Positions 5,190 to 61,772 are shown, counted from the stretch's first letter. The stretch is 64,000 nt of DNA from Acidobacteriota bacterium (GCA_963666215.2 CAXWPL010000005.1:1536001-1600000); one strand, 5' to 3'. Notes: generated from the sequence alone by a model not told the origin. Translations and numbers: made by a program.

Positions 5190-5193
5190 CTCC

Positions 5194-20771: not shown

Positions 20772-22223
20772 ATGCCATTCTATCTCCAGGTCCACTCAGC
20801 GAAGCGCGCGAGTGGATCGCGACTCGCCTGTCTCGCACTGCTCTTCATCGCACTTCTAGGCGCCTCGTGCTCTACAGAGCCGGCGGTCGACAAGCCAAAC
20901 GTGCTGCTCATTACTCTCGACACCTTGCGAGCCGACCACCTTTCTTGCTACGGCTACGAGAAGGAGACCAGCCCCTTCCTGGACAGCCTGGCGGCAACGG
21001 GAACTCGGTTCGACGCGGCCTATGCAGCCAGCAACATCACCAAGCCATCGCACGCCTCCATTCTGACCGGCCTTTACCCGAAAAACCACGGCCTCCTGAG
21101 TAACAGCGAGGGGCTGCTCAATGATGCCATCACCACCTTGGCGGAATCGTTCAAAGATAGCGGCTACTTCACCTTCGCCGTCGTCGGTACCGATCTGCTG
21201 AACGACCGTCGTAGCGGCCTCGGGCAAGGATTCGACATTTTCGAAAACTCACCCCAACCTCAGCGCCGAGCGGAGGCAGTCACCCAGCTGGCGGTGGACC
21301 AGCTACACGAGTTGCCGAACAAACCGTTTTTCGCCTGGATTCATTTCTACGACCCCCACATCCCGTACAACCCGCCAAAGGTTTTGGTAGAGCATTTTTC
21401 ATCGCCAACACCCAACTCCGTGCCGACCAATCTGGAGGTAAGGCCATTTCGCGAGGACCAGATGGTCAAGGGAGCCATCCCTGCTTCATCGAGTCTGCCA
21501 GGCGTCACCGATCCAAGCGTTTACTCGGCGGCCTATGACGGTGAAATCGCCTACCTGGACTATGCCCTCAAGATCTTGTTTAACAACCTGGAACTTGTCG
21601 GTCGGCGCAACAACACAATCGTCGGTATCACGGCAGACCACGGCGAGATGCTCGGCGAGCGCGGAATTTTCTACAACCACGCCTCCCTCTACGAGCCCGT
21701 GATAAGAGTGCCCATGATCCTCGTGGCAACCGACCATCGACTGCCTCCGGTAGTCGAAACGGTAGTCGAGAACATCGACCTCGGGCTGACCTTGCTGGAG
21801 CTCGCCGGGCTGGAAGCGCCGAGCAATCTCGACGCCAAGAGCCTTATTCCCGCCTTGGCCGGCCGAGCATCACCAGCAACAAATCGAGCCTTCTCGCAGC
21901 ACTCCTACGACCTGTTGATCTCGCTACGCACCTCAACCGACACGCTAGTTCTTCCCATCCCATCGGCGGAAAAGATCATCGTGACCCCCTTCTCACGCTT
22001 CGATCGATCGACCTATCTACAATACGTCAGCGGCGAGCTGCCCATTCTCATAAGTAGCTCCGAGCCCGGCCAAAACATCTACTCAAAGAATCCCGAGCGA
22101 GCGCAGAGCTTGCAGGCAGACCTGGAAGACTGGTATGCGGAACGCCGGCAAACTCCAGCACCAATTCGGGGAAACCTGAGCGAAGAGGAAAAACGACAGC
22201 TGGAAGCTCTCGGCTATCTGTAG
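20772..22223 (+). CDS. Sulfatase-like lipoprotein (TxPSH motif)
   Basis: Lipobox GASC, NVLLITLDTLRADH, ITKPSHASILTGLYP..HG, PFFAWIHFYDPH.PY, ADHGE, LEALGYL. Confidence 0.9.
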   Translation: MPFYLQVHSAKRASGSRLACLALLFIALLGASCSTEPAVDKPNVLLITLDTLRADHLSCYGYEKETSPFLDSLAATGTRFDAAYAASNITKPSHASILTGLYPKNHGLLSNSEGLLNDAITTLAESFKDSGYFTFAVVGTDLLNDRRSGLGQGFDIFENSPQPQRRAEAVTQLAVDQLHELPNKPFFAWIHFYDPHIPYNPPKVLVEHFSSPTPNSVPTNLEVRPFREDQMVKGAIPASSSLPGVTDPSVYSAAYDGEIAYLDYALKILFNNLELVGRRNNTIVGITADHGEMLGERGIFYNHASLYEPVIRVPMILVATDHRLPPVVETVVENIDLGLTLLELAGLEAPSNLDAKSLIPALAGRASPATNRAFSQHSYDLLISLRTSTDTLVLPIPSAEKIIVTPFSRFDRSTYLQYVSGELPILISSSEPGQNIYSKNPERAQSLQADLEDWYAERRQTPAPIRGNLSEEEKRQLEALGYL

Positions 22224-22715: not shown

Positions 22716-22863
22716 AGGAGCGTGTCCGAGTGTTCCTTCTGAGCCGTTCCCCGGAGCGAATAGGAAGCACCGCCCGGGTGCGCCGTCCTCGGCGCCAAAA
22801 GGCAACTAGCCGGGGCGCGCCTAGCGCAGGAAATGATAGCCATCATTTCCTGCGCTAGGCTAG
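22716..22863 (+). repeat. Interspersed CTAG-bounded repeat, B-type unit
   Basis: AGGAGCGTGTCCGAG..GAGCGAATAGGAAGCA..GTGCGCCGTCCTCGGCGCCAA..CAACTAG, then a perfect 19-bp hairpin (22819-22860). Confidence 0.9.
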
Positions 22864-24431
22864 TTCTCGAAGCCGATCGGCTCGATGTTGCAGATCGAGT
22901 AGGTCAACGGCGGGCGAGGACCCCAAAGCGGCTCGACCGTGATCGATCGCCAGTCTTCGATCTCCTCCTCGAGCGACTGGATCACCTCGGGGCGCTCACC
23001 CGCGAGGTTGTTCTGTTCGCGCACGTCCACAGATAGGTCGTAGAGGAAGCCCAGGGGCTCATCCTGGTTGGGCTTGATGAGCTTCATATCGCCCTGGCGA
23101 ACCGCAATGGCCGGAGACATGCGGAATACCAGACGGTCGTGATGCGAACCCCCACCCCCTTCCTCGAACAGCGGCAGGAGATTGTGACCGTCGAGGGCGA
23201 GACCCTCGGGCGCGGTCTGCCCCGCGGCGGCGATTGCGGTTGGCAGGATGTCGAGTGAAGACACCGGCGTGCTCACCCGGCTACCCGCTTCGATCGCCTG
23301 TGGCCACCGCATCAAGAACGGCACTCGCACGCCGCCCTCGTAGAAGGTGGCCTTGCCGCCCGAAAGCGGCTCGCAAGAGCACAGTCCCGGGACATAGCCT
23401 GCGCAGCCGTTATCGCCGAGGAAAACGACGAGGGTGTTGTCGGCAAGACCGTTCTCCTCGAGAGTGTCGAGGATGCGCCCGACCGCATCGTCGAGGGCAG
23501 CGATCATCCCGAAGTAGATGCGCAGGAGCTCGTTTTTCTGGTCCGGAAAGCGGTCGTAGTGCTCCTGGGTGACTTGAAAGGGCGAATGCGGCGCATTGAA
23601 CGCGGACTAAAGAAAAAAGGGCTCGTCTTTGTGCCGGCTGATGAAGTCGACCGATCTCTCACCGAATACGTCGGTGATGTACTCCGCCACTTCGCGGACC
23701 GTCCTCTCGGGCCCTTCGACGATTTGGTTGCCTCCGCTTCGGTTGGGCGGAGAGAGGGGCTCGCTTCCACGAACGAGGAGATCAGTGCGCGGGTCTTCAG
23801 GCGGTCTGGCACGAAGTTCGTCGTCGAACGCCATCGAATGAACCCCTTGCGAGAGCACATTGACGAATTGCGTTGCTCCCGAGAGATGACCGTAGAACTC
23901 GTCGAAGCCGCGATGGGTCGGATAGTGTTCGTCTTTGAAACCGAGGTGCCACTTGCCAACGATGCCGGTCGCGTAGCCGGCGCGCTTGAGATGATCGGCG
24001 ATCGTCAGCTCACCGGCGATGAGGCCGACATCAGGCACCTCGGGTGACTCGCGAGCGTTGTGCTCGAAGCCATAGCGCTGCTGGTAACGACCGGTCATGA
24101 GGGCCGCGCGCGAAGGCGAGCAAACCGGCGTGGTCACATAGCCCTGCTCGAAGATCGCGCCCTCTTTGCCGATGCGATCGATGTTGGGTGTCGCCACCCG
24201 GTCGCCGTAGGTCGAGATGTCGGCATAGCCGAGATCGTCGGCGAGGATCACGATGATGTTCGGTTGACGTGCCGGCTCCGGAGCCTGGGCTCTCTCCGCC
24301 GCTGAGGGATCCGACCCCTCGTTTGCGCAGGCGCTCAAGGCCAACGCGACAAGACATATCAACCCTAGACCAGCGTTTCCGAAGTTCGCGCCACCTATCT
24401 CGGCCCCTTCTGCCCGCTGGCAGCGTTGCAC
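22860..24431 (-). pseudogene. Formylglycine-type arylsulfatase lipoprotein with one in-frame TAG at 23607-23609
   Basis: PNIIVILADDLG, CSPSRAALMTGRY, GKWHLG, PFFL*SAFNAPHSP, GDNG, GGKATFYEGGVRVP in one frame. Start uncertain. Confidence 0.87.
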
Positions 24432-24650
24432 CTCCTCGACAGATTCCCAATATGCCTGCGTCGGCGCGCCTTGCCAGCGAACAGAATGACCTCGAGCTAT
24501 GCGACTCGAACTTCGGAAACGCTGGTCTACTGTCAGCGTTCTCATTTACAGTGCCTCCGCCAAATCCGCCAGGGGTCTACAGCCTCGGTGCGCTCATCGC
24601 GGGCCGCGCTTCTTTGAGTATACTACCGGCAACAGAGGAGAGGAGATCTG

Positions 24651-34848: not shown

Positions 34849-35151
34849 GAGTTTCAGGACGACGACCCGAAGCGCACGGCCGAGCGATGGGGCGCGATTG
34901 CCGGAATCGAGGTGGCGCAGCGGGCCGACGGCTTCTGCCTCGCGCTGGCCAATGGCGAGTTGCGCTTCGTGCCTGACGAGGACGGTCGTGGAGCGGGGAT
35001 GAGTGGCGTTGATCTCGAAGTCCAGGGCCGCGTCGGTGTTCTAGGGGCTGCGGAACGGGTGGGAGCTTGCCGAAGCGACAGATGTATCGAGCTTTGCGGC
35101 ACACGCTTCTACCTCAGCGAGGTGGCGCGCTCAACCGAGAATTCGCCTTAG
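34849..35151 (+). pseudogene. C-terminal fragment of a probable VOC/glyoxalase-like protein
   Basis: DDPKRTAERWGAI...LANGELRFV..DGRG.G.SGVDL...IELCGTRF, joined to the ECH remnant. Confidence 0.45.
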
Positions 35152-36219
35152 GGCCTCCCGGCCTAGCAGGGTGGCGCCTCTACCCGCGCCCGCGCGGCCG
35201 GCCGAGACGAACATCACGGCTAGATAGAGACCCCATGCCTTGCCACGCTGCCAGGTGTCGTCGTCGAGCCGGCCACATGTTTCACGGAAGCGCGGGTGTT
35301 CCGACCGTGGCAGCAGGAGCCACGCGACGGCGAGGTCCGGGGCCGGTTCGGCGGCATGGAAGTCACCCCAGTCGAGCACCGCGGAGAGCCGACCGTTCTC
35401 GACCAGGAGGTTGAAAGGGTGCAAATCTCCATGGCACCACACCGGCGGCCCGGTCCAGTCCTGAACGTCAGTGAGTGCATGCCAAACTCTGGCGATCCGG
35501 TCTCCATCGACCGAGTCGCGGAGCCCGGCAAGGGTGGAGAGAAAGGGCTCGCCGCGCAGGCGGGGCGGCACGCCTCGGTGCGCGCTCGACGGGGCACCCT
35601 CAGGCACTTCGAGCGCGTGGAGGGCGGCTAGGAACCGTCCGAGAACCGTCGCCGCGCCATGCGGATCGAGATCGGAGCCCGCTGCCGGGCGTCCCGGTAG
35701 CCAGCGCGAGATCGACCAAGGCCAGGGATAGCCCGCACCGGGGAGGCCCGCTCGAATCGGAACCGGGAGCGCCAGGGGCAGCTCGGGTGCAAAGCGCGGC
35801 AACCACTCGAGCTCGAGCGCGACGAGCGGCGCGGCCACTGAACGACGAGGGAGACGGGCGAGCCAGGACTCTCCGATACGAAAGAGGCTGTTGTCCCAGC
35901 CTTCGGCGTATTTGGAGATCGGCTGCGTCGCCAGATCAGGATGCTGCGCCTCGAGCAGCCGGCGAACGAGATCGGCATCGACCTCGACTTCGGCAGCGAC
36001 GCTGCTCGGCGGTGATAGGAGAAGGGGCTCCGGATCCTCTCCACGCTCAGACACGGCCAGCAGCCTACCAATCACTCGAGCCCGCGCTCGCCCAGCCCGC
36101 ATGGGGAGAGGGGAAAAGTTGGTTTCGCCCCTGTCGCCGTCTTGGAGCGGGCGCCCAGCGAGCAATGCCGAGTCGCTGGCTATACATAACGCGATCACGA
36201 CTGTTCCTCTTCTGTACAA
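35131..36219 (-). CDS. Aminoglycoside phosphotransferase (APH)-family kinase
   Basis: EGWDN, RLPR, E..WLP, HGDLHPFNLLV, LDWGD, DLA. True start is probably further in. Confidence 0.85.
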   Translation of the reverse strand: MYRRGTVVIALCIASDSALLAGRPLQDGDRGETNFSPLPMRAGRARARVIGRLLAVSERGEDPEPLLLSPPSSVAAEVEVDADLVRRLLEAQHPDLATQPISKYAEGWDNSLFRIGESWLARLPRRSVAAPLVALELEWLPRFAPELPLALPVPIRAGLPGAGYPWPWSISRWLPGRPAAGSDLDPHGAATVLGRFLAALHALEVPEGAPSSAHRGVPPRLRGEPFLSTLAGLRDSVDGDRIARVWHALTDVQDWTGPPVWCHGDLHPFNLLVENGRLSAVLDWGDFHAAEPAPDLAVAWLLLPRSEHPRFRETCGRLDDDTWQRGKAWGLYLAVMFVSAGRAGAGRGATLLGREALRRILG

Positions 36220-37736
36220 TGAGTGGCATGTGGAATGAAGAAAGACCCTTTGCAGAGGGTGTGGCGGCTCTTGCCTATTGCAACCCCTTCCTGCCGCGCC
36301 GAGTCGAGCTCGAAAGGGCCGCGCTGGGGAGTGATTTCGAGGCTCATGGCGAGACCTGGAATCCGATTGCCGGTTCCATTTCCAGCCCTAACGTCGCCAA
36401 GATCCAAGATCGACTCGGAGCACGGATACCGGTATGGAGAGATCGTCTGCTGACGGGCTCGACAACCAAAGCCGGCGACCTTGCGCTCTATCGAGATGTC
36501 GTCTACTACGCGCTCTACAACCACTACGCGGAGGAGCTACTCGAGCTCATCAAGGCGGAAGGCTCCACCGTCCGGATGCCGAATTGGGAGACGTTCTTGG
36601 AAGATCTCGAGACCTTCCTGCCTGCGGAGATCGAGGTGCAAGGACGCGTCCCGCCCGATCTCCTCCTCGCCTGGTTCTTCCAATTGCGCCGAGCATTTCA
36701 CCACATCTTCAGGTCGATCTACGGCTCCTCGTTACCCGTGGCCGAGCTGCGGGCGCAAGTTTGGCAGTCGGTCTTCACCCACGATATGCGGCGCTACCAG
36801 TCGGGTCTCTACGAGCGAATGCGGGAGACCACGACCCTCATCACCGGCCCTTCCGGCACCGGCAAGGAACTGGTGGCGCGGGGAATCGCGCTATCGCAGT
36901 ACATACCTTTCGATTCGCGCCGCAAGGTTTTCAAGGCCGATTTCAGAGACGCATTTCGCGCGCTGAATCTCTCGGCACTATCACCGACCCTGATCGAGTC
37001 CGAGCTCTTTGGGCATCGAAAGGGCGCCTTCACCGGAGCGCTCGACGACCGGCGGGGCTGGCTTGAAGGCTGCCCGGCGCATGGGACTGTCTTTCTCGAC
37101 GAGATCGGCGACGTGTCGGAGGAGATCCAGGTAAAGCTGCTTCGAGTTCTCCAGACCCGGGCATTCCAGCGCCTGGGAGACACCGAGGATCGATCCTTCG
37201 AGGGGAAATTGGTGGCCGCAACCAACCGCGAGCCCGAGGCGGAGATGGAGGCCGGCAGAATGAGGACCGACTTCTACTACCGGATCTGCGCCGACCAGGT
37301 CCGGACGCCGTCACTGCAGCAGCAGCTCGACCGGTCGGGCAAGGAGCTGACTCTTCTTCTGCAGGTGATCGTCAGCGATCTCGTTGGGCCCGAGAACGCA
37401 GAGTCACTGACCCACGAAGTCGCGGACTGGGTCGTGACCCACCTCGGCCACGACTACCCGTGGCCCGGGAACTTCCGGGAGCTGGAACAGTGTGCGCGCA
37501 ATGTGATGATCCGCGGCAGCTACCGGCCCGCTCATCCGGCCACCTTGACGCCGAGTCTGGCGAGCGAGATCTCGGAGCTGAGTCTCGATGCCGAGACCTT
37601 GCTTCGACGCTACGCTACTCTCGCTTACCACCGCACCGGTAGCTACGTGGGCGCTGCGGACAAGATCGGCCTCGATCGCAGAACAATCAAGGCCAAAGTC
37701 GACCCTGAGTACCTGGCCGCACTTCGTAGCGCCTAG
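36219..37736 (+). CDS. Sigma54-dependent enhancer-binding protein (AAA+, GAFTGA) without receiver domain
   Basis: GPSGTGKE, ESELFGHRKGAFTGA, FLDEIG, AATN, WPGNFREL, C-terminal HTH. Confidence 0.92.
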   Translation: MSGMWNEERPFAEGVAALAYCNPFLPRRVELERAALGSDFEAHGETWNPIAGSISSPNVAKIQDRLGARIPVWRDRLLTGSTTKAGDLALYRDVVYYALYNHYAEELLELIKAEGSTVRMPNWETFLEDLETFLPAEIEVQGRVPPDLLLAWFFQLRRAFHHIFRSIYGSSLPVAELRAQVWQSVFTHDMRRYQSGLYERMRETTTLITGPSGTGKELVARGIALSQYIPFDSRRKVFKADFRDAFRALNLSALSPTLIESELFGHRKGAFTGALDDRRGWLEGCPAHGTVFLDEIGDVSEEIQVKLLRVLQTRAFQRLGDTEDRSFEGKLVAATNREPEAEMEAGRMRTDFYYRICADQVRTPSLQQQLDRSGKELTLLLQVIVSDLVGPENAESLTHEVADWVVTHLGHDYPWPGNFRELEQCARNVMIRGSYRPAHPATLTPSLASEISELSLDAETLLRRYATLAYHRTGSYVGAADKIGLDRRTIKAKVDPEYLAALRSA

Positions 37737-37740
37737 AGAG

Positions 37741-38862
37741 TCAGATCAGGGCCCTGAAGATGGGCATTTCTGCCGACACCTCAATCCCGAGCCCTGGCCG
37801 AGAAGAAAGGTCGAGCGCATCGCAGTCGAGCACACCTCCGGCGCCGAACATGAGAGGCGGATCGCACACATCCTCGGCGAGAAGGAGAGTGCCGAAGGCG
37901 CCCTCTTGTGCTACCAATGAGGCGCCGGCAACGCCGGCGACCACGATACCGGCACGGGTCAGTAGGCTGGTCTCTCCCACCTGTGCCCCGACGATGATTG
38001 GAAGCCCTAACTCTCGGGCGCGTCGAAGCACTTCTAGAGAGCGTCGGATCCCGCCCATCTTCGAAACTCGGACATTGAGGATCCAAGTCTGGGGGTCGGA
38101 GGCCAATGCCTCTAGCTGTGAGGCTCGCGAAAAGCTCTCATCGAGAATGATTCTGCACTCCGTGCGCCGATGGATCTCTCGCAGGGCGTTGAGGTCACTC
38201 GCAGCGACCGGTTCCTCGATACCGAAGAAGGCTGCCTCCATTCCGGAGAGGTGGCGCAGCGCCTCCGTCGCGTTGCTCCAAAGGTTGTTGGCGTCGACAC
38301 GAACGCTGTCGTCCGCAATGCCCTGAGATCGCAGGATCGAGAGCTTGTTCGAGTCTCTCGCCAGGTTGCGGGAGAGTTTGATCTTGAATTCGCAAAAGCC
38401 CATCTCTCGGTAGCGCTCGACGGTCTCTTCGAAGCCGGCGGCGTCATCGTCCCCGACCACCGCCGTGTATCGAAAGACCCCGCGAGTAGGCGCCAGTGAA
38501 AGGCACTCCTCAATCGACTGGCCGCGTTGCTTGGCGAAGAGGTCAAGGTAAGCGAGCTCGACCGCGCACCAGGCGGCTGGATCGGCATCGATCAACGGCT
38601 CGTGCGCGCTCGCCCAATCGGCCAAGTCTCGGTAGCTGTGGAAGCTCGACTCCCACGACGCCTGATGCTCCGCGAAGAAGCTGGCGGCAGAGTCGAGGGT
38701 CTCCCCGGTGACGTACTCTCGCGGGCAGCCCTCGCCGACACCTCGCAGGCCTCCTTGCGAAGCTTCCACCCACACCGCTTGCGTTTCGGCTCGCTCCGCC
38801 GAGCCGTGCTTGAAGCGTTGCCGAAAGGGAATGACGACGCGGAAGAAGCGAAGCTGGCTCAT
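37741..38862 (-). CDS. Enolase-superfamily enzyme (mandelate racemase/MLE, dipeptide-epimerase-like)
   Basis: GEGCPREYVTGE, KIK, RVDAN, IEEP, LDES, SKMGG, GETS. Confidence 0.87.
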   Translation of the reverse strand: MSQLRFFRVVIPFRQRFKHGSAERAETQAVWVEASQGGLRGVGEGCPREYVTGETLDSAASFFAEHQASWESSFHSYRDLADWASAHEPLIDADPAAWCAVELAYLDLFAKQRGQSIEECLSLAPTRGVFRYTAVVGDDDAAGFEETVERYREMGFCEFKIKLSRNLARDSNKLSILRSQGIADDSVRVDANNLWSNATEALRHLSGMEAAFFGIEEPVAASDLNALREIHRRTECRIILDESFSRASQLEALASDPQTWILNVRVSKMGGIRRSLEVLRRARELGLPIIVGAQVGETSLLTRAGIVVAGVAGASLVAQEGAFGTLLLAEDVCDPPLMFGAGGVLDCDALDLSSRPGLGIEVSAEMPIFRALI

Positions 38863-38869
38863 CGCGGCT

Positions 38870-40540
38870 CTAGCCAGTCCTGCGAGGCCGCATCGTCGAG
38901 AAATCGAAGGAGCAGTCTTCGGCATACTGCAGCGGCAACAATTTGAATTGACCCTCTCGCTGACCCTGGGCAAGCATGTGCCGCTTGTAGGCCTCTCCAG
39001 CACCGGCCGCCACCGGAACGATGTCGAGGGGCCCTAGCCTCCCGCTCTTTCTCTTTGAACCGTACTCGATGTTGATCTCGCCTAGAGCGCTCTCCACGGC
39101 TTCCTCCCATCGCCCGACCTCCGAAACATCGAGGTCGAGCTCGAGAACGAGTCGGTATCGCGACTCCCTGGCTTGCGCCAGCATCAACATGAAGGCCGGC
39201 GAAGTACCGAGCTCTCGTTCCGCTCTCCGGACCGCGGCGATGACCTGGCTCTCGTAGAGCTTCTCACCGGTGATACTCGTGACGCCCTTTCCCTTCTGAA
39301 CGAACCGGATCGTGGGAGTGGCGTGGAAGCTCCCACTGACTTCGATCAGGTCGTTCATGAAGTAACGCCACAGCCCGGCGTCGGTAGTGACGATCACGTA
39401 GTACTGGACCCCCTCTTGCAGCTGATCGACGGTGAGGGTGCGAGTGTCTCCGCCATCCCAGCTGTCGCGCTCCGCAAACTCGAAGTAGTTGTCGAGTATC
39501 GTGGGCATTCCCAGACCGTGTTGGAGGTCGACCGTTATGGTGCCGCGAAACTCACTCGAGAGGTAGCCGAGCTCGGCGATCTCGGTAGATTCGGGGAGAG
39601 CCGACAACACCCCTCCCAATGCGATGCCACAGCTTCCACCGGTCCAGGTGGTGAGCAGGCGGAGCTCCGGCCATACGTCCTTGAAGGCCGGAGCGGGCAA
39701 GCGGAGAGCACTTTCCAATTCCGAGACTCTCTTGGGAGTCGTTCGGAGGCGGGCTCGAATGGCAGCCTTGATCGAGTCCGGCAGTCGCTCGAGGTAGCGG
39801 AAGTCCTGAGCGCAGATATCTTCGAGTAGCTCCTCTCGTCGCTCTCGCATCAGCTCGAGCAGGCGAACAAAGGTCGAGGGGTTAGCGCTGCCCATGAAAC
39901 TCACGTCGCGGTAGGGGAGGGCGAGACGGAGAATGGTGAGGTATTTGAGATCGTAGTCCTCGATCTCGAATACCTCGTAAGGCAGAACGTACTTAGCTCG
40001 CGCCAATCGAGGCATGTTTTTGTAGACGTGACCCGAGGCCGAACCGAAGGGCCTGCCCGAGGCGAGTGCGCCTTCGACAGCCGGGCTGACAATCGGCAGA
40101 AGTCGGCCGGAGTAGGCGCCAGGCACCTTCCTGTATTGAATGTAGGCCTGAGCTCCTTGGCTCCTTCGATGGGCGTCCAAGGTCGATTGGAGGTAGGGGA
40201 TCAACTTGGGCTTGCCGGTGGTTCCGCTGGTCTGCGCGTACAGGACCGGCGGGTCACGGTTCAGTGAGCGCTCACCGGTCTCCTCCTGCTCTTCGATGTA
40301 GGGCCTCAGCGACTCGTAGCTCTGGATGGGCACCCGGCTGGAGAATTCGTCGATCGTCCTGATCGACGCGAAGTCGTGCTCGCGGCCGAAGCGTGTTTCG
40401 GCGTTGCGAGCCAACTGTCGCATCAGCCAACGCTCTTGCTCCGCGCGTGGGTTCTTTGCCGCCGCAACCAAGGGCCTCCAATGGGTCCAGCGATAGAGCT
40501 GCATCCGACACCAGAGCATGAGATTCAGCGCGGCCCTCAT
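38870..40540 (-). CDS. GH3-family acyl-acid amido synthetase
   Basis: TSGTTGKPK.IP, GYLSSE, YYVIVTT.AGLWRYFMNDL, GEKL; ATGA overlap with the desaturase stop. Confidence 0.9.
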   Translation of the reverse strand: MRAALNLMLWCRMQLYRWTHWRPLVAAAKNPRAEQERWLMRQLARNAETRFGREHDFASIRTIDEFSSRVPIQSYESLRPYIEEQEETGERSLNRDPPVLYAQTSGTTGKPKLIPYLQSTLDAHRRSQGAQAYIQYRKVPGAYSGRLLPIVSPAVEGALASGRPFGSASGHVYKNMPRLARAKYVLPYEVFEIEDYDLKYLTILRLALPYRDVSFMGSANPSTFVRLLELMRERREELLEDICAQDFRYLERLPDSIKAAIRARLRTTPKRVSELESALRLPAPAFKDVWPELRLLTTWTGGSCGIALGGVLSALPESTEIAELGYLSSEFRGTITVDLQHGLGMPTILDNYFEFAERDSWDGGDTRTLTVDQLQEGVQYYVIVTTDAGLWRYFMNDLIEVSGSFHATPTIRFVQKGKGVTSITGEKLYESQVIAAVRRAERELGTSPAFMLMLAQARESRYRLVLELDLDVSEVGRWEEAVESALGEINIEYGSKRKSGRLGPLDIVPVAAGAGEAYKRHMLAQGQREGQFKLLPLQYAEDCSFDFSTMRPRRTG

Positions 40541-41454
40541 TTGTTTGGCTCGGTCCTTTTGTCGAGTCCGGCCGAAAAGGGTGTCTTCATCTGGGAGCCG
40601 AAATCGAGTGGATAGCCGCGATTGACCAGGCCTAGATCGCCGACTCGCCGATCCTTGGGGAGAAACCAGCTGCCGAATAGGAGGTCCCACAGAATCAGGT
40701 TGTTGCCGTAGTTTCGATTGGACTCCTCGATGACCATGGAGTGGTGCCAGCGGTGCAATTCGGCGCCGCTGATCACGTAGTTGAGAAGGCCGTACCTCGC
40801 GTCCACGTTCGAGTGCTGGAAGAATCCGTTGACGGCGTAAAAGACGAAGTAGAGCGCTAGCACCTCTTCGCTCACTCCGACCAGGATGAACGGCAGCATG
40901 TCGAGCATGTACTGCAGAGCTTTCTCTATCGGGTGGAAGCGACCGACGTTGAGCCAGTAGAGCTTGTGGGGAGAGTGATGCACTGCGTGCAGACGCCACA
41001 GAAGCGGTACCTTGTGAGCCGCGACGTGAAGCCAGTAACGAAGGAACTCGGCAACGAGCAGCATGATCCCAACCTGGGCGATCAGCGGAAGGTGGTGAGG
41101 CCAGATCGCCAGAGCTCGATTGGATGCGCTCAGGATGCGCACCAGGCTCACTCCGGCCAGGAGAGTCAGCATCTGCGGCAGAACCATCTGCACCAGCATC
41201 ATGAAGATGAGATCGTTCTTGACGTCGCCGGTATCCGGCTGCCACTCGCGGTCGTAGGGGATGACCATCTCCAGCAAAGTGACTGCGGCGGCGCCCAGGA
41301 CCACGGCCGCGTACGAGCTCAGCAGGATCGAGGCGTCCATGAAGTCGAGTTGGGCATAGAGCGCGAACGCCCCCAACATCGTGCCCGGGTATGCGATCCA
41401 GGGCAGGAGCTGACGTCTGAGTCTGTTCACAAAGGCTGTTTTGCGGTGAGGCAT
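40537..41454 (-). CDS. Sterol desaturase/fatty acid hydroxylase family
   Basis: His boxes YWLHVAAH, LHAVHHS, RFHP, QHSN, HRWHH, NYG...WD.LFG. Start 41454 or GTG 41430. Confidence 0.92.
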   Translation of the reverse strand: MPHRKTAFVNRLRRQLLPWIAYPGTMLGAFALYAQLDFMDASILLSSYAAVVLGAAAVTLLEMVIPYDREWQPDTGDVKNDLIFMMLVQMVLPQMLTLLAGVSLVRILSASNRALAIWPHHLPLIAQVGIMLLVAEFLRYWLHVAAHKVPLLWRLHAVHHSPHKLYWLNVGRFHPIEKALQYMLDMLPFILVGVSEEVLALYFVFYAVNGFFQHSNVDARYGLLNYVISGAELHRWHHSMVIEESNRNYGNNLILWDLLFGSWFLPKDRRVGDLGLVNRGYPLDFGSQMKTPFSAGLDKRTEPNK

Positions 41455-41467
41455 CCTACCCGTCTGT

Positions 41468-41483
41468 AGCACTTCCCATGCCA
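41468..41483 (-). promoter_or_regulatory. Sigma54 (-24/-12) promoter
   Basis: TGGCATG-GGAA-GTGCT versus consensus TGGCACG-N4-TTGCW, with exact GG/GC spacing, just upstream of the desaturase. Confidence 0.7.
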
Positions 41484-41579
41484 ACTCGGCGGCAGAGCCA
41501 TGGCTCTGCCGCTGAGGGCGCCCTCGCTTCGCACGCACACTCCGGTCTACAATCACTCATCGACCCAAGAGGAGAGCGT

Positions 41580-42371
41580 ATGCAGTCAGTGACGGCTCAG
41601 GTCCGATATCTCAACCCTGATTGGAGAGGTCGCAGCGAAATGCCTCGCATCGGCGATCGCGAGTCGCGGCATGCCAACACCAGCAAGCGCGCGGTCGACA
41701 TCTTCGACGCACGGGGCATGGACCTCGGCCTCGACTCGGCAGGCTTCATGCTCACCAAGCACCGATCGAAGGTCGGAGACTTTCACCAGGATGGGGAAGT
41801 CCGCGCCACTTATTACGTCGAGATCGCTCGTCTACTCCAAGAGCTCACCGGGGCGGAGCATGCCCTCATCCTCCAGCATGTCGTTCGGACCGAGGACACC
41901 AGCGACTTCAACAAGGCCTACGCGCGCTTCGTTCACTGCGACTACTCGGTCAGAGATGCTCGAGGAAACGCCGAGAGAACCTTGCTCGCTCACGGCTTGG
42001 AGCTGACTCCGTCCCAGCAATGGGAATTCGCCTGGTTCAACACCTGGCAGCCGATCGAGCGCGAAGTGCTCAAGAATCCGCTGGCGATGATCGACGCAAG
42101 AACTCTCTCGTTCGACGACGTTGTCGACTATGAGTACAGTGGGTACGGAGAGCCGGTGCGCAGCTCGATGCCGGCCTTCAATCCGGACCACAAGCTCTAT
42201 TTCTTCCCGCGAATGCAGACCGACGAAGTGCTCGTGATGAAGCAGCTCGACACGCGACTCGACCGCGCCAGGCTGTGTCCGCACACTTCCTTCGACATCG
42301 ACGCGCCGGCGGACGCGCCGGGCCGCCGCAGCATCGAAGTAAGGATCATGTGTGCCTTTCGTAAACGCTAG
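41580..42371 (+). CDS. CmcJ/NvfI-family oxidoreductase
   Basis: IFDARG, LDSAGF, YY.E...L...TGA, VHCDY, N.W.PI, PLA.ID, PHTSF, RRSIEVR. Confidence 0.85.
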   Translation: MQSVTAQVRYLNPDWRGRSEMPRIGDRESRHANTSKRAVDIFDARGMDLGLDSAGFMLTKHRSKVGDFHQDGEVRATYYVEIARLLQELTGAEHALILQHVVRTEDTSDFNKAYARFVHCDYSVRDARGNAERTLLAHGLELTPSQQWEFAWFNTWQPIEREVLKNPLAMIDARTLSFDDVVDYEYSGYGEPVRSSMPAFNPDHKLYFFPRMQTDEVLVMKQLDTRLDRARLCPHTSFDIDAPADAPGRRSIEVRIMCAFRKR

Positions 42372-42594
42372 GAGCGTGTCCGAGAATTCGGACAGGCGAG
42401 TAGTTCTCAGGCGGGGATGGGCCGGAGAACGGGCCGCAGGTCCGTTCTCCGGGGCTAGGAGCGTGTCCGAGTATTCGTCCTGAGCCGTTTCCGTGAGCGA
42501 ATAGGAAGCAACGCCCAAGTGCGCCGTCCTCGGCGCCAAGAGACAACTAGGCGGAGGAAATGATAGCCATCATTTCTGGAGCCTAGGAGCGTGT
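42368..42594 (+). repeat. Tandem mosaic repeat A-B-A' (each unit starts CTAGGAGCGTGTCCGAG); third unit interrupted by IS
   Basis: Units start at 42368 (A), 42455 (B) and 42583 (A', first 12 nt). Confidence 0.92.
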
Positions 42595-42659
42595 ATCTGG
42601 ACTCCCGTGTCAAGTAGTTGATTTCAACTCATAGAGAGATTCTGGTTTTCTCGGTCTTC

Positions 42660-42850
42660 GGGCTGAGAGTGGTAGGTCAGACAGCAGACGTATCTCCGGC
42701 CTCAGATTGGCGTGACGATGTGTGCACGCCGGGCCATGATGGAAAAGTGCGCGTGAGGGAGCCGAATCGTCCGAGAAAACGGCCTCGAGGGCCAACGCTC
42801 CTAGCGGCTTGTGCCCTCACGCCAGTCTGACTGGAAACCATCAAAGTCCT
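42660..42850 (-). ncRNA. Predicted bridge RNA/seekRNA of the IS1111 element
   Basis: Loop closed by AGCCG/CGGCT holds CUAGGAGCGU and UCUCGGAC (the two target halves) around a GGCC hairpin. A second loop holds CAUCAU and AGAUA (donor junction). RNA ends are approximate. Confidence 0.8.
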
Positions 42851-42906
42851 TGGATCGAGCTGTGAGTGGATGGGGGTTACGAGTAGGTTGTGGTCGTTCG
42901 GTCGTC

Positions 42907-43944
42907 TTAGGCAGCAGCGAGCAACGGCTTGGGCTCGAAGGCGCGCTTACGGGTCCACACGGCCCAGACAATGCGGGCCAACTTGTTGGCGAGGGCAACG
43001 GCGGCTTTGTTGGATCCTCGGCGGGTATCGACGTGCAGCGCCCACTGTTGGAGGCGGCCTTGGGGTTGTTTTCTCTTCGCCCACGACAGCACGGAGCGGG
43101 CCCCGTGGATCAGGAGCGTGCGCAGATAGCCGTCGCCGCGTTTGCTGATGCGTCCGAGCCAGCGTCGTGCGCCACTGGAGTGTTCGCGCGGCGTGAGCCC
43201 GAGATAGCTGGCAAGATGGCGTCCGCTCTTGAAGCGAGAGACATCTCCGATCCAGGCCACCAGGGCCGTGGCGGTCAGGACCCCGATGCCAGGAATGGTC
43301 ATCAGCAGCTGCACGGCTTCGAGCTGTTTGGCGAGCGCTTGGATGTGGTTGTCGATCTCCGCGATACGCTCGTGGAACTGCTCGATCTGATCGCATTGCG
43401 CTGCGAAGTGAGGGCGCAATGCCATGGGGATGTCCGTCTCGGCGTCGGCGATCAGCTCTCGGACCCTCGGCACGACGCGCGCACGTCCTAGAGGGATGAA
43501 GTGTCCGAATTCTCGCAAGTGCCCGCGTAGAGCGTTGCAGTGAGCCGTACGATCGCCGATGTAGGCCGCGCGCATCCGATGCAGAGTGGTGAGCGTTTGT
43601 TGCTCGAGCGACTTGACAGGGACAGGCAGGATGTCTTCGTTGCGATACGCCTCGAGCATGCCTTTGGTGTCGGTTCGATCGGTCTTGTGGGCGCCGACAT
43701 AGCGGTGGGTCAGGTGGGGTGGCAGCAGGACGACCGAGTGGCCGAGCTCTCCTATTTCCCGGCCCCAGTAGTGCGCGGAGCCACAGGCCTCCATGACCAC
43801 CGTCGTGGGCTTGCGTTGTGCGAAGAAAGACAAAAAGCCAGCTCTTCGGACTCGATGCCGGTCCGCCACCTTTCCCGGCTCATGCGACACGGCGATCTCG
43901 AACACATCCTTGGCCAGGTCGACACCGATAACGGTATGCTTCAT
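42907..43944 (-). CDS. IS110-family DEDD recombinase/transposase (intact)
   Basis: IGVDLAK, VMEAC, KTDRTD, IPGIG, YLGLTPREHSSG (catalytic Ser), GRISKRGD.YLR.LL, VALANKLAR. Confidence 0.95.
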   Translation of the reverse strand: MKHTVIGVDLAKDVFEIAVSHEPGKVADRHRVRRAGFLSFFAQRKPTTVVMEACGSAHYWGREIGELGHSVVLLPPHLTHRYVGAHKTDRTDTKGMLEAYRNEDILPVPVKSLEQQTLTTLHRMRAAYIGDRTAHCNALRGHLREFGHFIPLGRARVVPRVRELIADAETDIPMALRPHFAAQCDQIEQFHERIAEIDNHIQALAKQLEAVQLLMTIPGIGVLTATALVAWIGDVSRFKSGRHLASYLGLTPREHSSGARRWLGRISKRGDGYLRTLLIHGARSVLSWAKRKQPQGRLQQWALHVDTRRGSNKAAVALANKLARIVWAVWTRKRAFEPKPLLAAA

Positions 43945-44033
43945 GGGGCTCCCTTCCAGTACTAGAGTTTCGGTTTGGGCGACCCGCGGCACACAGATGC
44001 CGATCGAAGTCGCCAGGGAGTCCATTTCATCAT

Positions 44034-44111
44034 CCGAGTATCGGACAGGCGAGTAGTTCTCAGGAGGGGATGGGCCGGAGAACGGGCCGCGGGCCCATTC
44101 TCCGGGGCTAG
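44034..44111 (+). repeat. Remainder of interrupted A-type repeat unit
   Basis: CCGAGTATCGGACAGGCGAGTAGTTCTCAGG..CCGGAGAACGGGCC..TTCTCCGGGGCTAG matches 42380-42458. Confidence 0.92.
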
Positions 44112-45334
44112 GTGGAGCTCTGCCGTTTAAAGGAGCTGGAGCGGCGCAGCCAGAGGACTACTGAACCGACCGCGAGACCCATGACGGCCAAAGCCGTCCG
44201 CTCGCCCAAGACGTCGGCAAGATAGCCGATCGGCAGTCCCATCAAACCGAAGCCGGCGAAAGAAAGCATGGTCAGCGACATCACTCGCCCCACGTATCTC
44301 GGCTCGGTCGCGCCTACGATCACGGCGCCGGCGAGAGTCTGGAAACCGCCACTGAACACTCCCGCCACGAAGACGATCACGGTAAGGCCGAAGAAGCTCG
44401 GGGCGGCGGCGACGGCCAATAGACTTAGGGCGAACCCCAGGGCCATCAGTGAGAAGAGAGCGGGGGAGCGGGGAGAGTCGGCGTAGCGCGCAACCACCAC
44501 GCTCGCCGTCAGAGCACCGAGAGCAGTGACTCCGAATTGCACACTCGAAGACTCGGTGGGCAAGCCGAGCTGGTTCTGTACAAAGCCAGGCAATAGGGTG
44601 ATGTATGGAAAGCCGAGGATGATGACAAGCGTAAAGAGGAGCATGAGCGGGCGCAGCTGGGGGTGATCACGCACGTAGCGAAGGCCGGCGAGGATGTCAT
44701 CGAGTAGACGGGCTCGGGACGCGCCGCTAGACACGACGGATCGCGGGAGCAAGCCCAGGCTCAGAACCGAGATCAGGTAGAGAACGCCCATCACGATGTA
44801 GGCGGCCCACACTCCGTCGGTCGACCACGCCAGAAAAGCCCCCGCAACCGCTGGGCCGAGCACCCTGCATCCACTATTCGCGACCTGAGTCAGTGCTATT
44901 GCGTTGCCTCGGCGTGCCTTTCCGACCAGCTCCACCGCCAGTGACTGGCGCGCCGGGCCCATGAACGCGAAGGAAGTGCCCATCACCGCCGAGCCCATCA
45001 TCAGCCAACCAATCTGGATGCGCTCGCTGGCGATACCCCACGCGATCCAAAAGAAGACCGACATCGTCAACAGCTGGCAGACTGCGATCACCCGGCGCTT
45101 GGGCCAGCGATCGGCAAGCGCGCCGCCCAGAGGGGCGAGGGTGAACATCATGATGCCCTGCGAGAAGACCACAAACCCCACGGCTCGGTTCTGCCCGGTG
45201 AGCTCAAAGGCCACCACACTCTGGGTAACCATCGACATGAAAAAGGCGACGAAGGCGAAAATCGTTCCGATCCACAGGATGCGGAACGGGCGAACGGAGA
45301 GCGCCGCAAAAGTCTGTCTCAGATGTCCAGGCAC
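44108..45334 (-). CDS. MFS transporter (MFS_3/H+ antiporter type)
   Basis: FRILW.G, GGALADRWPKR, PARQS, GRVMS; about 12 TM helices. Confidence 0.9.
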   Translation of the reverse strand: MPGHLRQTFAALSVRPFRILWIGTIFAFVAFFMSMVTQSVVAFELTGQNRAVGFVVFSQGIMMFTLAPLGGALADRWPKRRVIAVCQLLTMSVFFWIAWGIASERIQIGWLMMGSAVMGTSFAFMGPARQSLAVELVGKARRGNAIALTQVANSGCRVLGPAVAGAFLAWSTDGVWAAYIVMGVLYLISVLSLGLLPRSVVSSGASRARLLDDILAGLRYVRDHPQLRPLMLLFTLVIILGFPYITLLPGFVQNQLGLPTESSSVQFGVTALGALTASVVVARYADSPRSPALFSLMALGFALSLLAVAAAPSFFGLTVIVFVAGVFSGGFQTLAGAVIVGATEPRYVGRVMSLTMLSFAGFGLMGLPIGYLADVLGERTALAVMGLAVGSVVLWLRRSSSFKRQSST

Positions 45335-47139: not shown

Positions 47140-48337
47140 TCGACCTCGATGAGTACGCGAACAACATCTTCCTGACTAATCCCGGCATCGCAGTGGCGGA
47201 TGTTTGCTGCAATGCGGGAACCTCTTCGGCGCCGACAACATTCAGCTGCAGGCCGAGCTGCGCAACGCACTTCACGTCGAGTCTCTACTGCAGCGGGACG
47301 TTGATTACATCGTGCGAGAGAAACGCATCGAGCTCGTCGACGAGCTCACCGGCCGTGTTGCAAAAGATCGCCACTGGGCCGACGGAATTCAAGCGGCACT
47401 CGAGGCAAAGGAAGGCCTGTTCTTGGGCCACGAGGGACAGGTTCTCGGCTCGATCACGGTCCAGCACTTCTTGCACAAGTACCCGCAGCTTTGTGGCATG
47501 ACCGCCACTGCGAAGACCGCTGTGCCTGAGCTCGCCGAAGTCTATGGCCTGACGGTGCAAAGGATCGCAACCAACCGAGCCTGCGCCCGAATCGACGCTC
47601 CCGACCTCATTTTCCGAAGCCAGGAGAGCAAGCGCCCTGCGTTGGTCGATGCGATCTCCTGCGCTCACCGCCGTGTGCAGCCTACGCTGGTCGGCACCCT
47701 CAGTGTCAGAGAGTCCGAAGAGCTGGCCGGTGAGCTCGAGCGCGCCGAGGTACCCTGTCGCGTCCTCAACGCCAAGAGGGACGAAGAGGAGGCCTCGATC
47801 ATCGCCGAGGCCGGAGCGCCGGGCGCGGTGACGATCTCTACCAATATGGCAGGGCGAGGCACCGATATCCGCCTCGGAGGGTCAAACGAGAGTGAGCGAG
47901 ACCAGGTGTTGGCTGTCGGCGGCTTGGCGGTCTTTGGCACCAACCGACACGAGAGCCGTCGCATCGACGACCAGCTGCGCGGGCGAGCCGGTCGACAAGG
48001 CGATCCAGGCTCTTCTCGCTTCTTCGTCAGTCTCGAGGATCCGCTACTCCGGCGCTATGGCATCGAGCGACTGCTTCCCTCACGGAGCGCCGAGGCGCTC
48101 GATCACCCCATTGTTGCGCGGGAAGTCGCACGCGCGCAGCGCATCATCGAGGGGCAGCACGCCGACGCCCGCACCCGCCTGGTGCGCTACGAGCAGGTCC
48201 TGGAGCGGCAGCGCTCGGAGCTCCAGGGGCGGCGTCAGGCTGTCCTCGAGGGCAGAGAAGACTCGGGCCTGGTGGCGAAGCTCAGCCCGGAGCGGTGGCG
48301 CGAGCGTCGATTGGCTTCCGCAAGGGAGAAGTCGTAG
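47140..48337 (+). pseudogene. Internal fragment of a SecA/SecA2 paralog
   Basis: DVDYIV, VDELTGR, QAALEAKEG, GMTATA, VLNAK, STNMAGRGTDI, RRIDDQLRGRAGRQGDPG.S.FFVSLED. Lacks N-terminal NBD1 and C-terminus. Confidence 0.85.
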
Positions 48338-60281: not shown

Positions 60282-60302
60282 TCGCTAGCCTCGACGAGGC
60301 TC

Positions 60303-61772
60303 ATGGCTCTCGAACAGAAACTATCCCTCAAGCTGCATCAACGACTGGTGATGACGCCGTCGCTTCAGCAGGCGATCAAGCTGCTGCAGATGACGCGGAT
60401 GGAGCTTGAAGGGGCGGTCAGCCAGGAGCTTGAGGAGAATCCCGTCCTCGAAGAGCAAGAGGACGGGCCTGAAGAGGAAGAGACGCCGGAGCCCGAGACC
60501 GCTGCCGATGGGACCCCGGAGGAGAGCGCGGCGGAGGCCGAGGTCGCGGAGCGTGAGTCGATGGAAGACATCGATATCGAGGCTTACTTTCGTGACTATA
60601 TCGAGAGCTCTTCCACGCCGAACAACTACGAGGAAAGGGAGGCGACGGGCCTCGAGAACCGAGTCACTCGTGAGCCGGATCTCTACGATCATCTGCTGTG
60701 GCAATTGCACATGTCGGAGGCGGACCCGGCGACCCGTCAGATCGGCGAGCTGCTGATCGGGAATCTGGAGCCCGACGGTTTTCTGGTAGCCACGCTCGAA
60801 GAGATCAAGGCGATGGGGAATGAGAACGGTACCAAGCAGTTCTCCGACGAACAGATCGAGGCCGCCGAGCAGCTTCTCCAGAGCTTCGATCCACCGGGCG
60901 TGGGGTGCCGTACTCTGCGTGAGAGCCTGCTTATCCAACTCGACTTCGCCGGTGAAGAGGAAGACTCCCTTGCCATGGTCATCGTTCGAGACCACTGGGA
61001 GCTCTTCCTCAAACGTCACTTCCAGGCCCTGGCAAAGACGCTAGTGGTTCCTCTCCGCGATCTCGAGCCCATAGTGGAGGCGATCCGCTGTCTCGAGACC
61101 CATCCCGGACGCCGCTTCAGTACTGAGCGCACGCACTACGTCGAGCCTGACGTGCTGATCGTCAAACTGGATGGCGAGTACGTCATCCAGCTCAACGACG
61201 ACGGTCTTCCACGCCTCCGGGTCTCGCACCACTACCGCCGCCTTCTCCAGCAGTGGCGCTCAGGCAAGCGCCAGTCCGAGGCCCAGCAATACGTCAAGGA
61301 GAAGATGCGCTCAGCGATCTGGTTGATCAAGAGTCTCGATCAACGCCAGCGAACGATATACAAAGTCGCTGAATCCATTGTGCGCCAGCAGCGCGACTTT
61401 CTTGACCGTGGGCTGGATCACCTGAGGCCGATGGTCCTACGCGACGTCGCAGATGACATCGATATGCACGAGTCGACGGTCAGTCGCGTCGTGTCGAACA
61501 AATACATTCATACGCCGCGCGGGCTCTTTCCGATGAAGTTCTTCTTCCACAGCGGCATCGATCGCGAGTACGGCGAGAGCATCTCTTCGCTTATTGTAAA
61601 GCGTAAGATCGGCGCCCTAATCCAAGGTGAGCAGCCAAAACGGCCGCTGTCGGATAGCGAGTTGATGAGAGCGCTCAATCGAGAGGGCATTCATATCGCA
61701 CGACGCACCGTCGCCAAGTATCGCGACGAGCTCGGCATCGCTTCATCGACAGATCGAAAGCAGATTTTTTGA
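60303..61772 (+). CDS. rpoN: RNA polymerase sigma54
   Basis: MTPSLQQAIKLLQ, ENP.LE, MHESTVSR, RpoN box ARRTVAKYR. Confidence 0.97.
   Translation: MALEQKLSLKLHQRLVMTPSLQQAIKLLQMTRMELEGAVSQELEENPVLEEQEDGPEEEETPEPETAADGTPEESAAEAEVAERESMEDIDIEAYFRDYIESSSTPNNYEEREATGLENRVTREPDLYDHLLWQLHMSEADPATRQIGELLIGNLEPDGFLVATLEEIKAMGNENGTKQFSDEQIEAAEQLLQSFDPPGVGCRTLRESLLIQLDFAGEEEDSLAMVIVRDHWELFLKRHFQALAKTLVVPLRDLEPIVEAIRCLETHPGRRFSTERTHYVEPDVLIVKLDGEYVIQLNDDGLPRLRVSHHYRRLLQQWRSGKRQSEAQQYVKEKMRSAIWLIKSLDQRQRTIYKVAESIVRQQRDFLDRGLDHLRPMVLRDVADDIDMHESTVSRVVSNKYIHTPRGLFPMKFFFHSGIDREYGESISSLIVKRKIGALIQGEQPKRPLSDSELMRALNREGIHIARRTVAKYRDELGIASSTDRKQIF

Follow-up and report, generated by a model that had tools for sequence, protein, structure and literature searches.

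A stretch of 64,000 nucleotides (nt) from an Acidobacteriota bacterium (GCA_963666215.2 CAXWPL010000005.1:1536001-1600000; the whole stretch is called the window here) carries three closely packed genes, encoding a fatty acid hydroxylase superfamily protein, a GH3 amido synthetase, and an enolase-superfamily protein. This hydroxylase-GH3-enolase trio is a real and strongly co-conserved unit, far beyond chance. The reading favored here, with a probability of roughly 0.55, is that the three genes in the window represent a single copy of a widespread cassette, which has yet to be described and whose product is a modified N-acyl amino acid assembled at the membrane. The cassette and the regulatory gene that faces it are laid out as follows:

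41454..40537, minus strand: cassette gene 1, fatty acid hydroxylase superfamily; 305 residues, membrane di-iron enzyme, OlsE-like
40540..38870, minus strand: cassette gene 2, GH3 ATP-dependent acyl-acid amido synthetase; 556 residues
38862..37741, minus strand: cassette gene 3, enolase superfamily (muconate-lactonizing subgroup, racemase/epimerase-like); 373 residues
36219..37736, plus strand: sigma-54 enhancer-binding protein (the activator); 505 residues, start checked

A 4-nt overlap joins the hydroxylase stop to the GH3 ATG, and 7 nt lie between the GH3 stop and the start of the enolase-type gene. The activator gene converges on the cassette and ends 4 nt from the enolase-type stop. Coordinates and translations thus bear out the gene layout proposed in an initial annotation of this DNA, including the GAFTGA motif of the activator.

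The case for a conserved unit comes from the relatives of the GH3 protein. Among 8000 candidates scored, 2582 proteins matched it with an expect value (E) of 0.001 or below, and 120 of these were listed. A profile made from 16 aligned homologues was scanned against one genome per species and yielded 475 confirmed relatives; the best 80 were kept with up to 9 kilobases (kb) of flanking sequence, and all locus counts refer to these 80 (individual loci are cited as L001 and so forth). A neighboring gene was counted as hydroxylase or enolase-type at 150 bits or more. Judged by record titles, the 80 loci carry 12 phylum labels, with four loci unassigned: Pseudomonadota (42), Acidobacteriota (14), Gemmatimonadota (4), Poribacteria (4), Fibrobacterota (3), Bacteroidota (2), Latescibacterota (2), and five others with one locus each.

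The hydroxylase gene lies immediately 5' of the GH3 gene in 74 of the 80 loci. It forms a single reading frame with GH3 in 44 of them and is separate in the other 30, one of which (L027) appears as a fused gene interrupted within GH3. Five of the six loci without an upstream hydroxylase (L014, L021, L023, L050, and L076) end at the locus edge; only L073 truly lacks the gene. On the other side, an enolase-type gene follows GH3 immediately in 77 loci. The three exceptions are L040, where the gene is in three frame-shifted pieces; L080, which stops at a contig edge; and L059, which has no such gene. The initial annotation had proposed the trio as one unit, and the synteny across genomes upholds it. 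A literature search found no description of the hydroxylase-GH3-enolase combination.

Fusion of the first two genes is seen in the protein database as well: the hydroxylase domain, PF04116, stands ahead of the GH3 domains in 27 of the 120 listed homologues, which are 839-905 residues long. On the GH3 tree (79 rows; L016 and L027 were omitted because their GH3 is split), the fused and separate states changed at least six times. The window GH3 clusters there with two Gemmatimonadota bins, with full support and at 70% identity. A GH3-enolase fusion in L049 was discounted, because ambiguous bases fill the junction and could hide a stop. Cassette genes are broken over two or three frames in L016, L027, L037, L040, and L042; these split-gene loci include several long-read assemblies, and the breaks could be sequencing frameshifts or mark decaying copies. 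The fusions were not part of the initial annotation; nor were the kinship to OlsH and OlsE, a fourth conserved membrane protein, and the presence of rpoN in the window, all described below.

The hydroxylase belongs to the PF04116 superfamily (98.8 bits; cut-off, 31). The only NCBIfam model listed for it is OlsE (NF052566, an equivalog), which it matches over profile positions 5-285 of 293 at 196 bits, short of the cut-off of 475. Ten histidines are at least 97% conserved (n=74): H143, H147, H156, H159, H160, H174, H214, H234, H237, and H238. The three histidine boxes, HxxxH, HxxHH, and HxxHH, are intact across the loci, and hydrophobic stretches span residues ~40-68, 81-109, 124-142, and 183-208. 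An alternative start, GTG 41430, gives the same N-terminal length as in L001-L003 and fits the closest homologues better than ATG 41454. With OlsE of Rhizobium tropici the protein has in common near-full-length similarity, the di-iron histidine boxes, and a membrane location. OlsE, however, is a stand-alone enzyme that modifies a finished lipid, whereas the cassette enzyme is encoded by the first gene of a unit and is joined to the amide synthetase in the 44 fused loci. OlsE hydroxylates the ornithine head group at C4, according to the available passages of a 2026 review (PMC12971839).

The GH3 protein matches all three Pfam domains of its family, PF03321, PF23571, and PF23572 (N-terminal, middle, and C-terminal), at 194.8, 61.5, and 45.4 bits (each with a cut-off of 23.6), and plant GH3.8 (7dk8, E 4.5e-24) matches it along the entire length. 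Residues T104, S105, G106, T108, K112, Y326, E330, Y393, D397, and K427 show at least 97% conservation (n=79). They include positions of three conserved motifs, TSGTTGKPK (T104-K112), YLSSE (Y326, E330), and YFMND (Y393, D397), which are the nucleotide-binding motifs of adenylating enzymes. The nearest curated family is OlsH (NF052613, also an equivalog): the match amounts to 94 bits in two stretches, the better covering residues 27-208, against a cut-off of 620. The other NCBIfam model listed is an acyl-CoA synthetase, at a marginal 16 bits.

OlsH itself was characterized in 2025. As described in the accessible sections of that paper, the Singulisphaera acidiphila enzyme has three nucleotide-binding motifs of this kind and makes N-acyl ornithine from a free fatty acid with ATP and Mg2+; OlsI, an alpha/beta-hydrolase O-acyltransferase and the operon partner of OlsH in all planctomycete cases, attaches the second chain (PMC12493201). 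The same sections count more than 7500 bacterial OlsH homologues and state that their amino-acid specificity may differ (PMC12493201). The remark in the initial annotation that bacterial GH3 enzymes are poorly characterized is, in this respect, partly out of date.

The OlsH-OlsI(-OlsG) pathway is therefore the natural comparison: there, too, a bacterial GH3-type enzyme consumes ATP to N-acylate an amino acid with a free fatty acid, and its operon includes genes for lipid modification (PMC12493201, accessible sections). The cassette has the three-domain GH3 architecture and the nucleotide motifs in common with it. Besides the low OlsH score, two things set the cassette apart. Its GH3 is tied, often by fusion, to a di-iron hydroxylase and then to an enolase-type enzyme; the words "fused," "fusion," "hydroxylase," and "epimerase" each occur 0 times in the OlsH paper (PMC12493201). 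And the Pfam-scanned genes of the window include neither an OlsI-like nor an OlsG-like (methyltransferase) gene, with no alpha/beta-hydrolase among those at 24651-54484. Because neither score reaches the OlsH or OlsE cut-off, the cassette is filed as a variant of GH3-dependent amino-lipid synthesis and not as a member of the OlsH pathway.

The enolase-type enzyme matches Pfam MR_MLE_C at 101.2 bits (cut-off, 29.4). Sixteen NCBIfam subgroup models are listed for it, and its scores stay below every equivalog cut-off. The DgcA N-acetyl-D-Glu racemase model comes first (90.7 bits against 400), and the models for o-succinylbenzoate synthase/N-succinylamino acid racemase (77.1 against 200.65) and L-Ala-D/L-Glu epimerase (60.9 against 343) also fall short. 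Its closest solved relatives are, in order, 2p88 (E 3.4e-24), 3s5s (of unnamed function), and dipeptide epimerases, with an N-acylamino acid racemase (2zc8) lower down. K160-x-K162, D190, E216/E217, D241, and K268 show at least 97% conservation (n=71) and align with the same residues of 2p88 and 1jpm. Lys-x-Lys and the second Lys form the acid/base pair, and Asp/Glu/Asp are the metal ligands.

The catalytic Lys pair and the metal ligands are common to 2p88, 1jpm, 3jva, 2zc8, and DgcA, a class whose substrates are N-acylated amino acids with a free carboxylate. None of the known N-acyl or N-succinyl racemases and dipeptide epimerases is described with a GH3 partner, and the cassette enzyme has capping-domain loops of its own, with invariant residues R24, G43, E44, C46, P47, R48, and Y50. 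If R24 plays the role that we assume for R24 of 1jpm, it might indicate an acidic side chain. This reading of the head group was set aside as a lead only, since the 1jpm residue lies two positions off in an uncertain alignment. The structure 2p88 is, we take it, that of Bacillus cereus BC0371; the code does not appear in the review passages on that protein. BC0371 is described in those passages as an N-succinyl-L-Arg racemase (PMC2948282).

Further partners accompany the cassette in many loci. A membrane protein of ~150 residues, apparently with four helices, was found in 55 of the 80 loci by a search of the 700 nt upstream followed by a profile search. It is mostly encoded directly 5' of the hydroxylase gene and lies 3' of the enolase-type gene in L032, L066, and L077; it is fused in frame with hydroxylase-GH3 in L015 and L031, and to a CocE/NonD hydrolase in L001-L003 and L025. 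Four examples were scanned, and these match no Pfam or NCBIfam family. (An earlier clustering of flanking frames of at least 90 residues, in which no group outside the cassette reached more than 9 of 81 loci, missed this protein and is superseded.) Orthologues of the CocE/NonD-family alpha/beta-hydrolase, at 420 bits or more, occur in 17 of the 80 loci, either upstream, fused to the small membrane protein, or directly 3' of the enolase-type gene; they could carry out a deacylase or acyl-transfer step. Neither partner was found in the 64 kb of the window. Poribacteria-type loci have a second, distant hydroxylase-family gene (~53 bits to the window hydroxylase) just 3' of the enolase-type gene. 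Examples of the three are:

L028:7612-8076, L020:7549-8073, L026:7528-8103, and L032:11930-12568: small membrane protein (51 further loci)
L001:3-2264, L003:5791-8076, L036:6672-8477, and L028:11728-13590: CocE/NonD hydrolase (13 further loci)
L043:5666-6499, L051:4303-5139, and L072:4856-5746: second hydroxylase-family gene

Together, these families suggest a route to one product. On the best reading, by analogy with characterized relatives, this would be a hydroxylated, probably stereo-inverted N-acyl amino acid, made by a membrane-associated route. GH3 would adenylate a carboxylic acid, most likely a fatty acid, and couple it with an amino acid through the alpha-amino group of the latter; family membership and the intact nucleotide motifs stand behind the reaction type, and OlsH is the analogy for the substrates. 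The enolase-type enzyme would take the alpha-proton of the N-acyl amino acid and invert it to the D form, an outcome suggested by its relatives and compatible with its intact site of two lysines and three carboxylates. The OlsE-like di-iron membrane enzyme, with its intact histidine boxes and frequent fusion to GH3, would hydroxylate (or desaturate) the head group or the acyl chain, and its place in the order of steps is left free. That GH3 is fused to an integral-membrane enzyme speaks for a hydrophobic acid. The chemistry also fits at the next step, since GH3 enzymes make N-acylated amino acids that retain a free carboxylate, and this is the substrate class of the nearest enolase-type relatives. 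The lipoamino acid of the initial annotation, formed by amino-acid ligation and epimerization, matches the families found and is in line with the OlsH precedent; as a functional idea, it is partly supported.

Several observations weigh against this route. The cassette is known from genes alone in every member. The OlsH and OlsE scores lie so far under their cut-offs that the substrates may differ from those of ornithine-lipid synthesis, and with no O-acyltransferase linked, a two-chain membrane lipid is not implied. Racemization is not proven either, since the subgroup contains dehydratases and cycloisomerases with identical catalytic residues. Finally, the window copy may be incomplete, given that it lacks the small membrane protein and has an IS110 transposase close by.

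The pathway has rival readings as well. The trio could be a plain GH3-type ornithine-lipid pathway. GH3 would then be orthologous to OlsH and make lyso-ornithine lipid, the hydroxylase would be orthologous to OlsE and act on the ornithine head group, and the enolase-type enzyme would be an accessory. No curated family is closer than OlsH and OlsE, the OlsE match spans the whole profile, and the OlsH authors, in the sections available, expect homologues outside the planctomycetes (PMC12493201). Scores of 94 against 620 and 196 against 475 make this unlikely, as do the missing OlsI- and OlsG-like genes among those scanned and a near-universal enolase-type gene for which the reviewed pathways have no role; "racemase" occurs 0 times in the accessible text of the 2026 review (PMC12971839). 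A different chemistry would be hydroxylation beside the alpha-carbon followed by dehydration by the enolase-type enzyme, giving an N-acyl dehydro-amino acid or a cyclized product and not a D-amino acid. Hydroxylase and enolase-type genes do travel together, and the subgroup does include dehydratases and cycloisomerases, with the o-succinylbenzoate synthase, cis-3-hydroxy-L-proline dehydratase, and muconate cycloisomerase models matching at 56-78 bits. But the best-scoring relatives are racemases and epimerases, and OlsE acts on C4 of ornithine, not C3 (PMC12971839, available passages). Sequence does not separate dehydration from racemization, and this is judged the least probable of the alternatives.

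The product might instead be small: a signal made by conjugating an aromatic or other acid to an amino acid, as the solved plant GH3 relatives do with auxin, jasmonate, and benzoates, or the cassette might salvage D-amino acids by acylation, racemization, and deacylation. Such an acylate-racemize-deacylate route exists with N-succinyl amino acid racemases, and the CocE/NonD hydrolase would be able to deacylate. That hydrolase is, however, absent from 63 of the 80 loci. A hydrophobic substrate would be expected for a GH3 that is joined to an integral-membrane di-iron enzyme, as in the 44 fused loci, and in L015 and L031 to a further membrane protein as well. Neither a small conjugate nor salvage is at all likely on this evidence, and the modified N-acyl amino acid made at the membrane remains the preferred product.

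How the window copy is expressed is a separate question, which involves the activator and three further features:

41483..41468, minus strand: -24/-12-like motif TGGCATGGGAAGTGCT, upstream of the hydroxylase gene; read from the sequence
41485..41516, no strand: inverted repeat with arms 41485-41500 and 41501-41516; from a repeat search
60303..61772, plus strand: rpoN (sigma-54, required in trans); Pfam Sigma54_AID, Sigma54_CBD, and Sigma54_DBD at 64.0, 180.6, and 214.6 bits

The activator is a member of the sigma-54 activator family (PF00158, Sigma54_activat: 150.9 bits; cut-off, 20.2), with GAFTGA in its translation; no NCBIfam equivalog was reached. An all-helical N-terminal domain (residues ~1-200) is followed by the AAA+ domain with GAFTGA and a C-terminal, helix-turn-helix-like tail. 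The AlphaFold model of the whole protein has a mean predicted local distance difference test score (pLDDT) of 88.4, and Foldseek matches it to FleQ, ZraR, and NtrC1 (E 1e-15); the AAA+ domain dominates these matches. The AAA+ domain with GAFTGA is indeed what the activator has in common with those proteins, whereas its N-terminal ~200 residues are not a receiver, GAF, PAS, or V4R domain. This N-terminal domain is predicted to fold into eight helices (pLDDT 89.0). It has no Pfam family, and by itself it gave no Foldseek match in the PDB at E of 0.001 or below (best E, 0.65; template modeling score, at most 0.25). A search of the ESM Atlas returned only a "hypothetical protein" cluster (0.93). 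The domain is nevertheless common to at least 413 proteins.

An orthologue of the activator occurs in one of the 80 related loci. This is L032, a distant relative from a Binatia bin, whose GH3 is ~51% identical to that of the window; its activator aligns end to end with the window protein at 53% identity, and the gene runs toward the end of the cassette, the arrangement seen in the window. L070 has a generic 111-bit match to the activator only.

The motif TGGCATGGGAAGTGCT has the correct spacing of its GG and GC elements and agrees with the consensus at 9 of 11 positions. The -24 element is abutted by the inverted repeat (16 + 16 nt, no spacer, 94% complementary), a candidate regulator site that might instead form a hairpin in the divergent gene's leader. 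In L032, two motifs that match at 9 of 11 positions lie no more than 90 nt from the start. This locus also has an imperfect palindrome, TGTACAC-TGG-CTGCACA, at L032:7895-7911, ~90 to 140 nt upstream of the two motifs and so at a typical distance for an enhancer site; inspection by eye found no such palindrome in the window. In two related Poribacteria loci, L043 and L072, TGGCAT-N5-(G/A)TGCT stands ~30 nt ahead of the first gene. No sigma-70-like promoter was found in 35900-42600. Terminator-like hairpins occur no more often than by chance (6, against 3.8 ± 2.1). An Rfam scan of 35000-44500 with E up to 1 gave two sub-threshold matches to snoRNA models and no riboswitch or leader family.

Is the window cassette under sigma-54 control? 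The placement of TGGCATGGGAAGTGCT in the intergenic region and on the correct strand exceeds chance: a right-strand match within the 125-nt intergenic stretch has a chance of ~0.02, as estimated from shuffle counts. Both loci with the activator have a motif between -150 and +20 relative to the hydroxylase start, as does 1 of 72 other loci (Fisher p 0.0011, a post hoc comparison). With rpoN in the window, the position of the motif and the neighboring activator make such control plausible here, and an activator beside the cassette together with a -24/-12-like motif, in the window as in L032, suggests that expression of this copy is probably sigma-54-dependent. Control of the window copy as a lineage-specific feature is accordingly the better-supported view, and it is held with moderate confidence.

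The opposite view, that the motif is a chance match and the activator serves other genes, keeps a substantial minority share of the probability. Sites with two or fewer mismatches number 24 in the 64-kb window, whereas shuffled sequence gives 20.1 ± 4.3, and a count of 24 is attained in 19 of 100 shuffles; at this chance level, TGGCATGGGAAGTGCT alone carries no weight. The -12 GC lies 15 nt from the annotated ATG 41454 and leaves almost no leader, so the mRNA would be nearly leaderless, or translation would begin at GTG 41430. The activator family, for all its size, is found next to the cassette in just 2 of 81 loci. L001, the nearest relative whose flanks are long enough for a verdict, lacks an activator; L002 extends less than 0.7 kb beyond the enolase-type gene. 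Across the loci there is no enrichment, with a motif upstream in 7 of 73 against ~3.7 expected, and the motif was rejected as a general feature of the cassette. Against a chance match stand the strand and placement of the motif, the convergent orthologous activator and paired motifs of L032, the presence of rpoN, and the missing sigma-70-like promoter. Sigma-54 control would be a lineage-specific add-on in at most a few lineages and not part of the cassette. The sigma-54 control proposed in the initial annotation is plausible for the window copy, but not as a property of the cassette at large.

The divergent oxidoreductase noted in the initial annotation is present and belongs to the CmcJ/NvfI family (203.5 bits against NF041278; cut-off, 80). 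It was rejected as a member of the cassette, a homologue being found in 0 of the 80 loci at E of 1e-5 or below; so was an aminoglycoside-phosphotransferase-like gene (0 of 80). A start at 41478 was set aside in favor of the likely start, ATG 41580, behind GAGGAGAG. The CmcJ/NvfI gene and an IS110 transposase, both upstream of the cassette, suggest a possible rearrangement of the locus. Insertion-sequence genes are abundant in the window: IS110-family, a DDE_Tnp_1 transposase, and two IS240-type DDE pieces. These neighbors lie at:

41580..42371, plus strand: CmcJ/NvfI-family oxidoreductase, divergent; NCBIfam NF041278
42907-44025, minus strand: IS110-family transposase, adjoining the CmcJ/NvfI gene
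66-1112 (minus strand), 2149-2646 (plus strand), and 17746-18447 (minus strand): further insertion-sequence genes

Other parts of the window hold more familiar genes. A classical cluster at 57538-63215 (plus strand) comprises an LptC/LptA-like (LptD_N/LptC-related) protein, an ABC ATPase (ABC_tran), rpoN, and an HPr kinase (hprK). The C-terminal and N-terminal parts of a sulfatase are in adjacent frames (22860-23507 and 23607-24545, both minus strand), apparently as a split gene, and a whole sulfatase lies at 20772-22223. A 377-residue frame at 47204-48337 (plus strand) encodes just internal portions of SecA, namely a segment of the preprotein-binding domain, the P-loop, and the first part of the wing/scaffold; the frame may be a fragment, or another frame may encode the remainder. 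At 4551-6087 (minus strand), overlapping frames match CmcI/rhamnosyl O-methyltransferase and TylF macrocin O-methyltransferase domains.

A GH3-dependent route to an amino-acid lipid was shown only in 2025, for one planctomycete, in work that, in the sections accessible, leaves the role of other bacterial GH3 enzymes open (PMC12493201). The cassette gives a large group of bacterial GH3 proteins a fixed context: an OlsE-like hydroxylase, often fused, and an enzyme resembling N-acyl-amino-acid racemases. This context leads to a concrete prediction, a hydroxylated N-acyl amino acid that is possibly D-configured. Three parts without names are of interest in their own right: the four-helix membrane protein, the repeated hydroxylase-GH3 fusion, and the new candidate sensor domain on the sigma-54 activator.

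A bolder proposal can be made only tentatively. The cassette, usually with the four-helix protein and sometimes with the CocE/NonD hydrolase, might be a fourth amino-acid-lipid route, making a hydroxylated lipid with a D- or dehydro-amino acid, and the sigma-54 activator might here sense that lipid or its precursor. If so, the route would be evolutionarily separate from the three known ones and the first with a built-in enolase-superfamily epimerase, and its product would belong to a lipid class that has not been observed before. The cassette is found in at least 12 phyla, mostly in uncultured bacteria. The Pseudomonadota carriers include Thiobacillus, Nitrotoga, and Methyloversatilis bins. 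With the cassette present in Acidobacteriota, Gemmatimonadota, many Pseudomonadota, and sponge-associated Poribacteria, its product could be a lipid that is common in soils, sediments, and symbionts yet has escaped notice.

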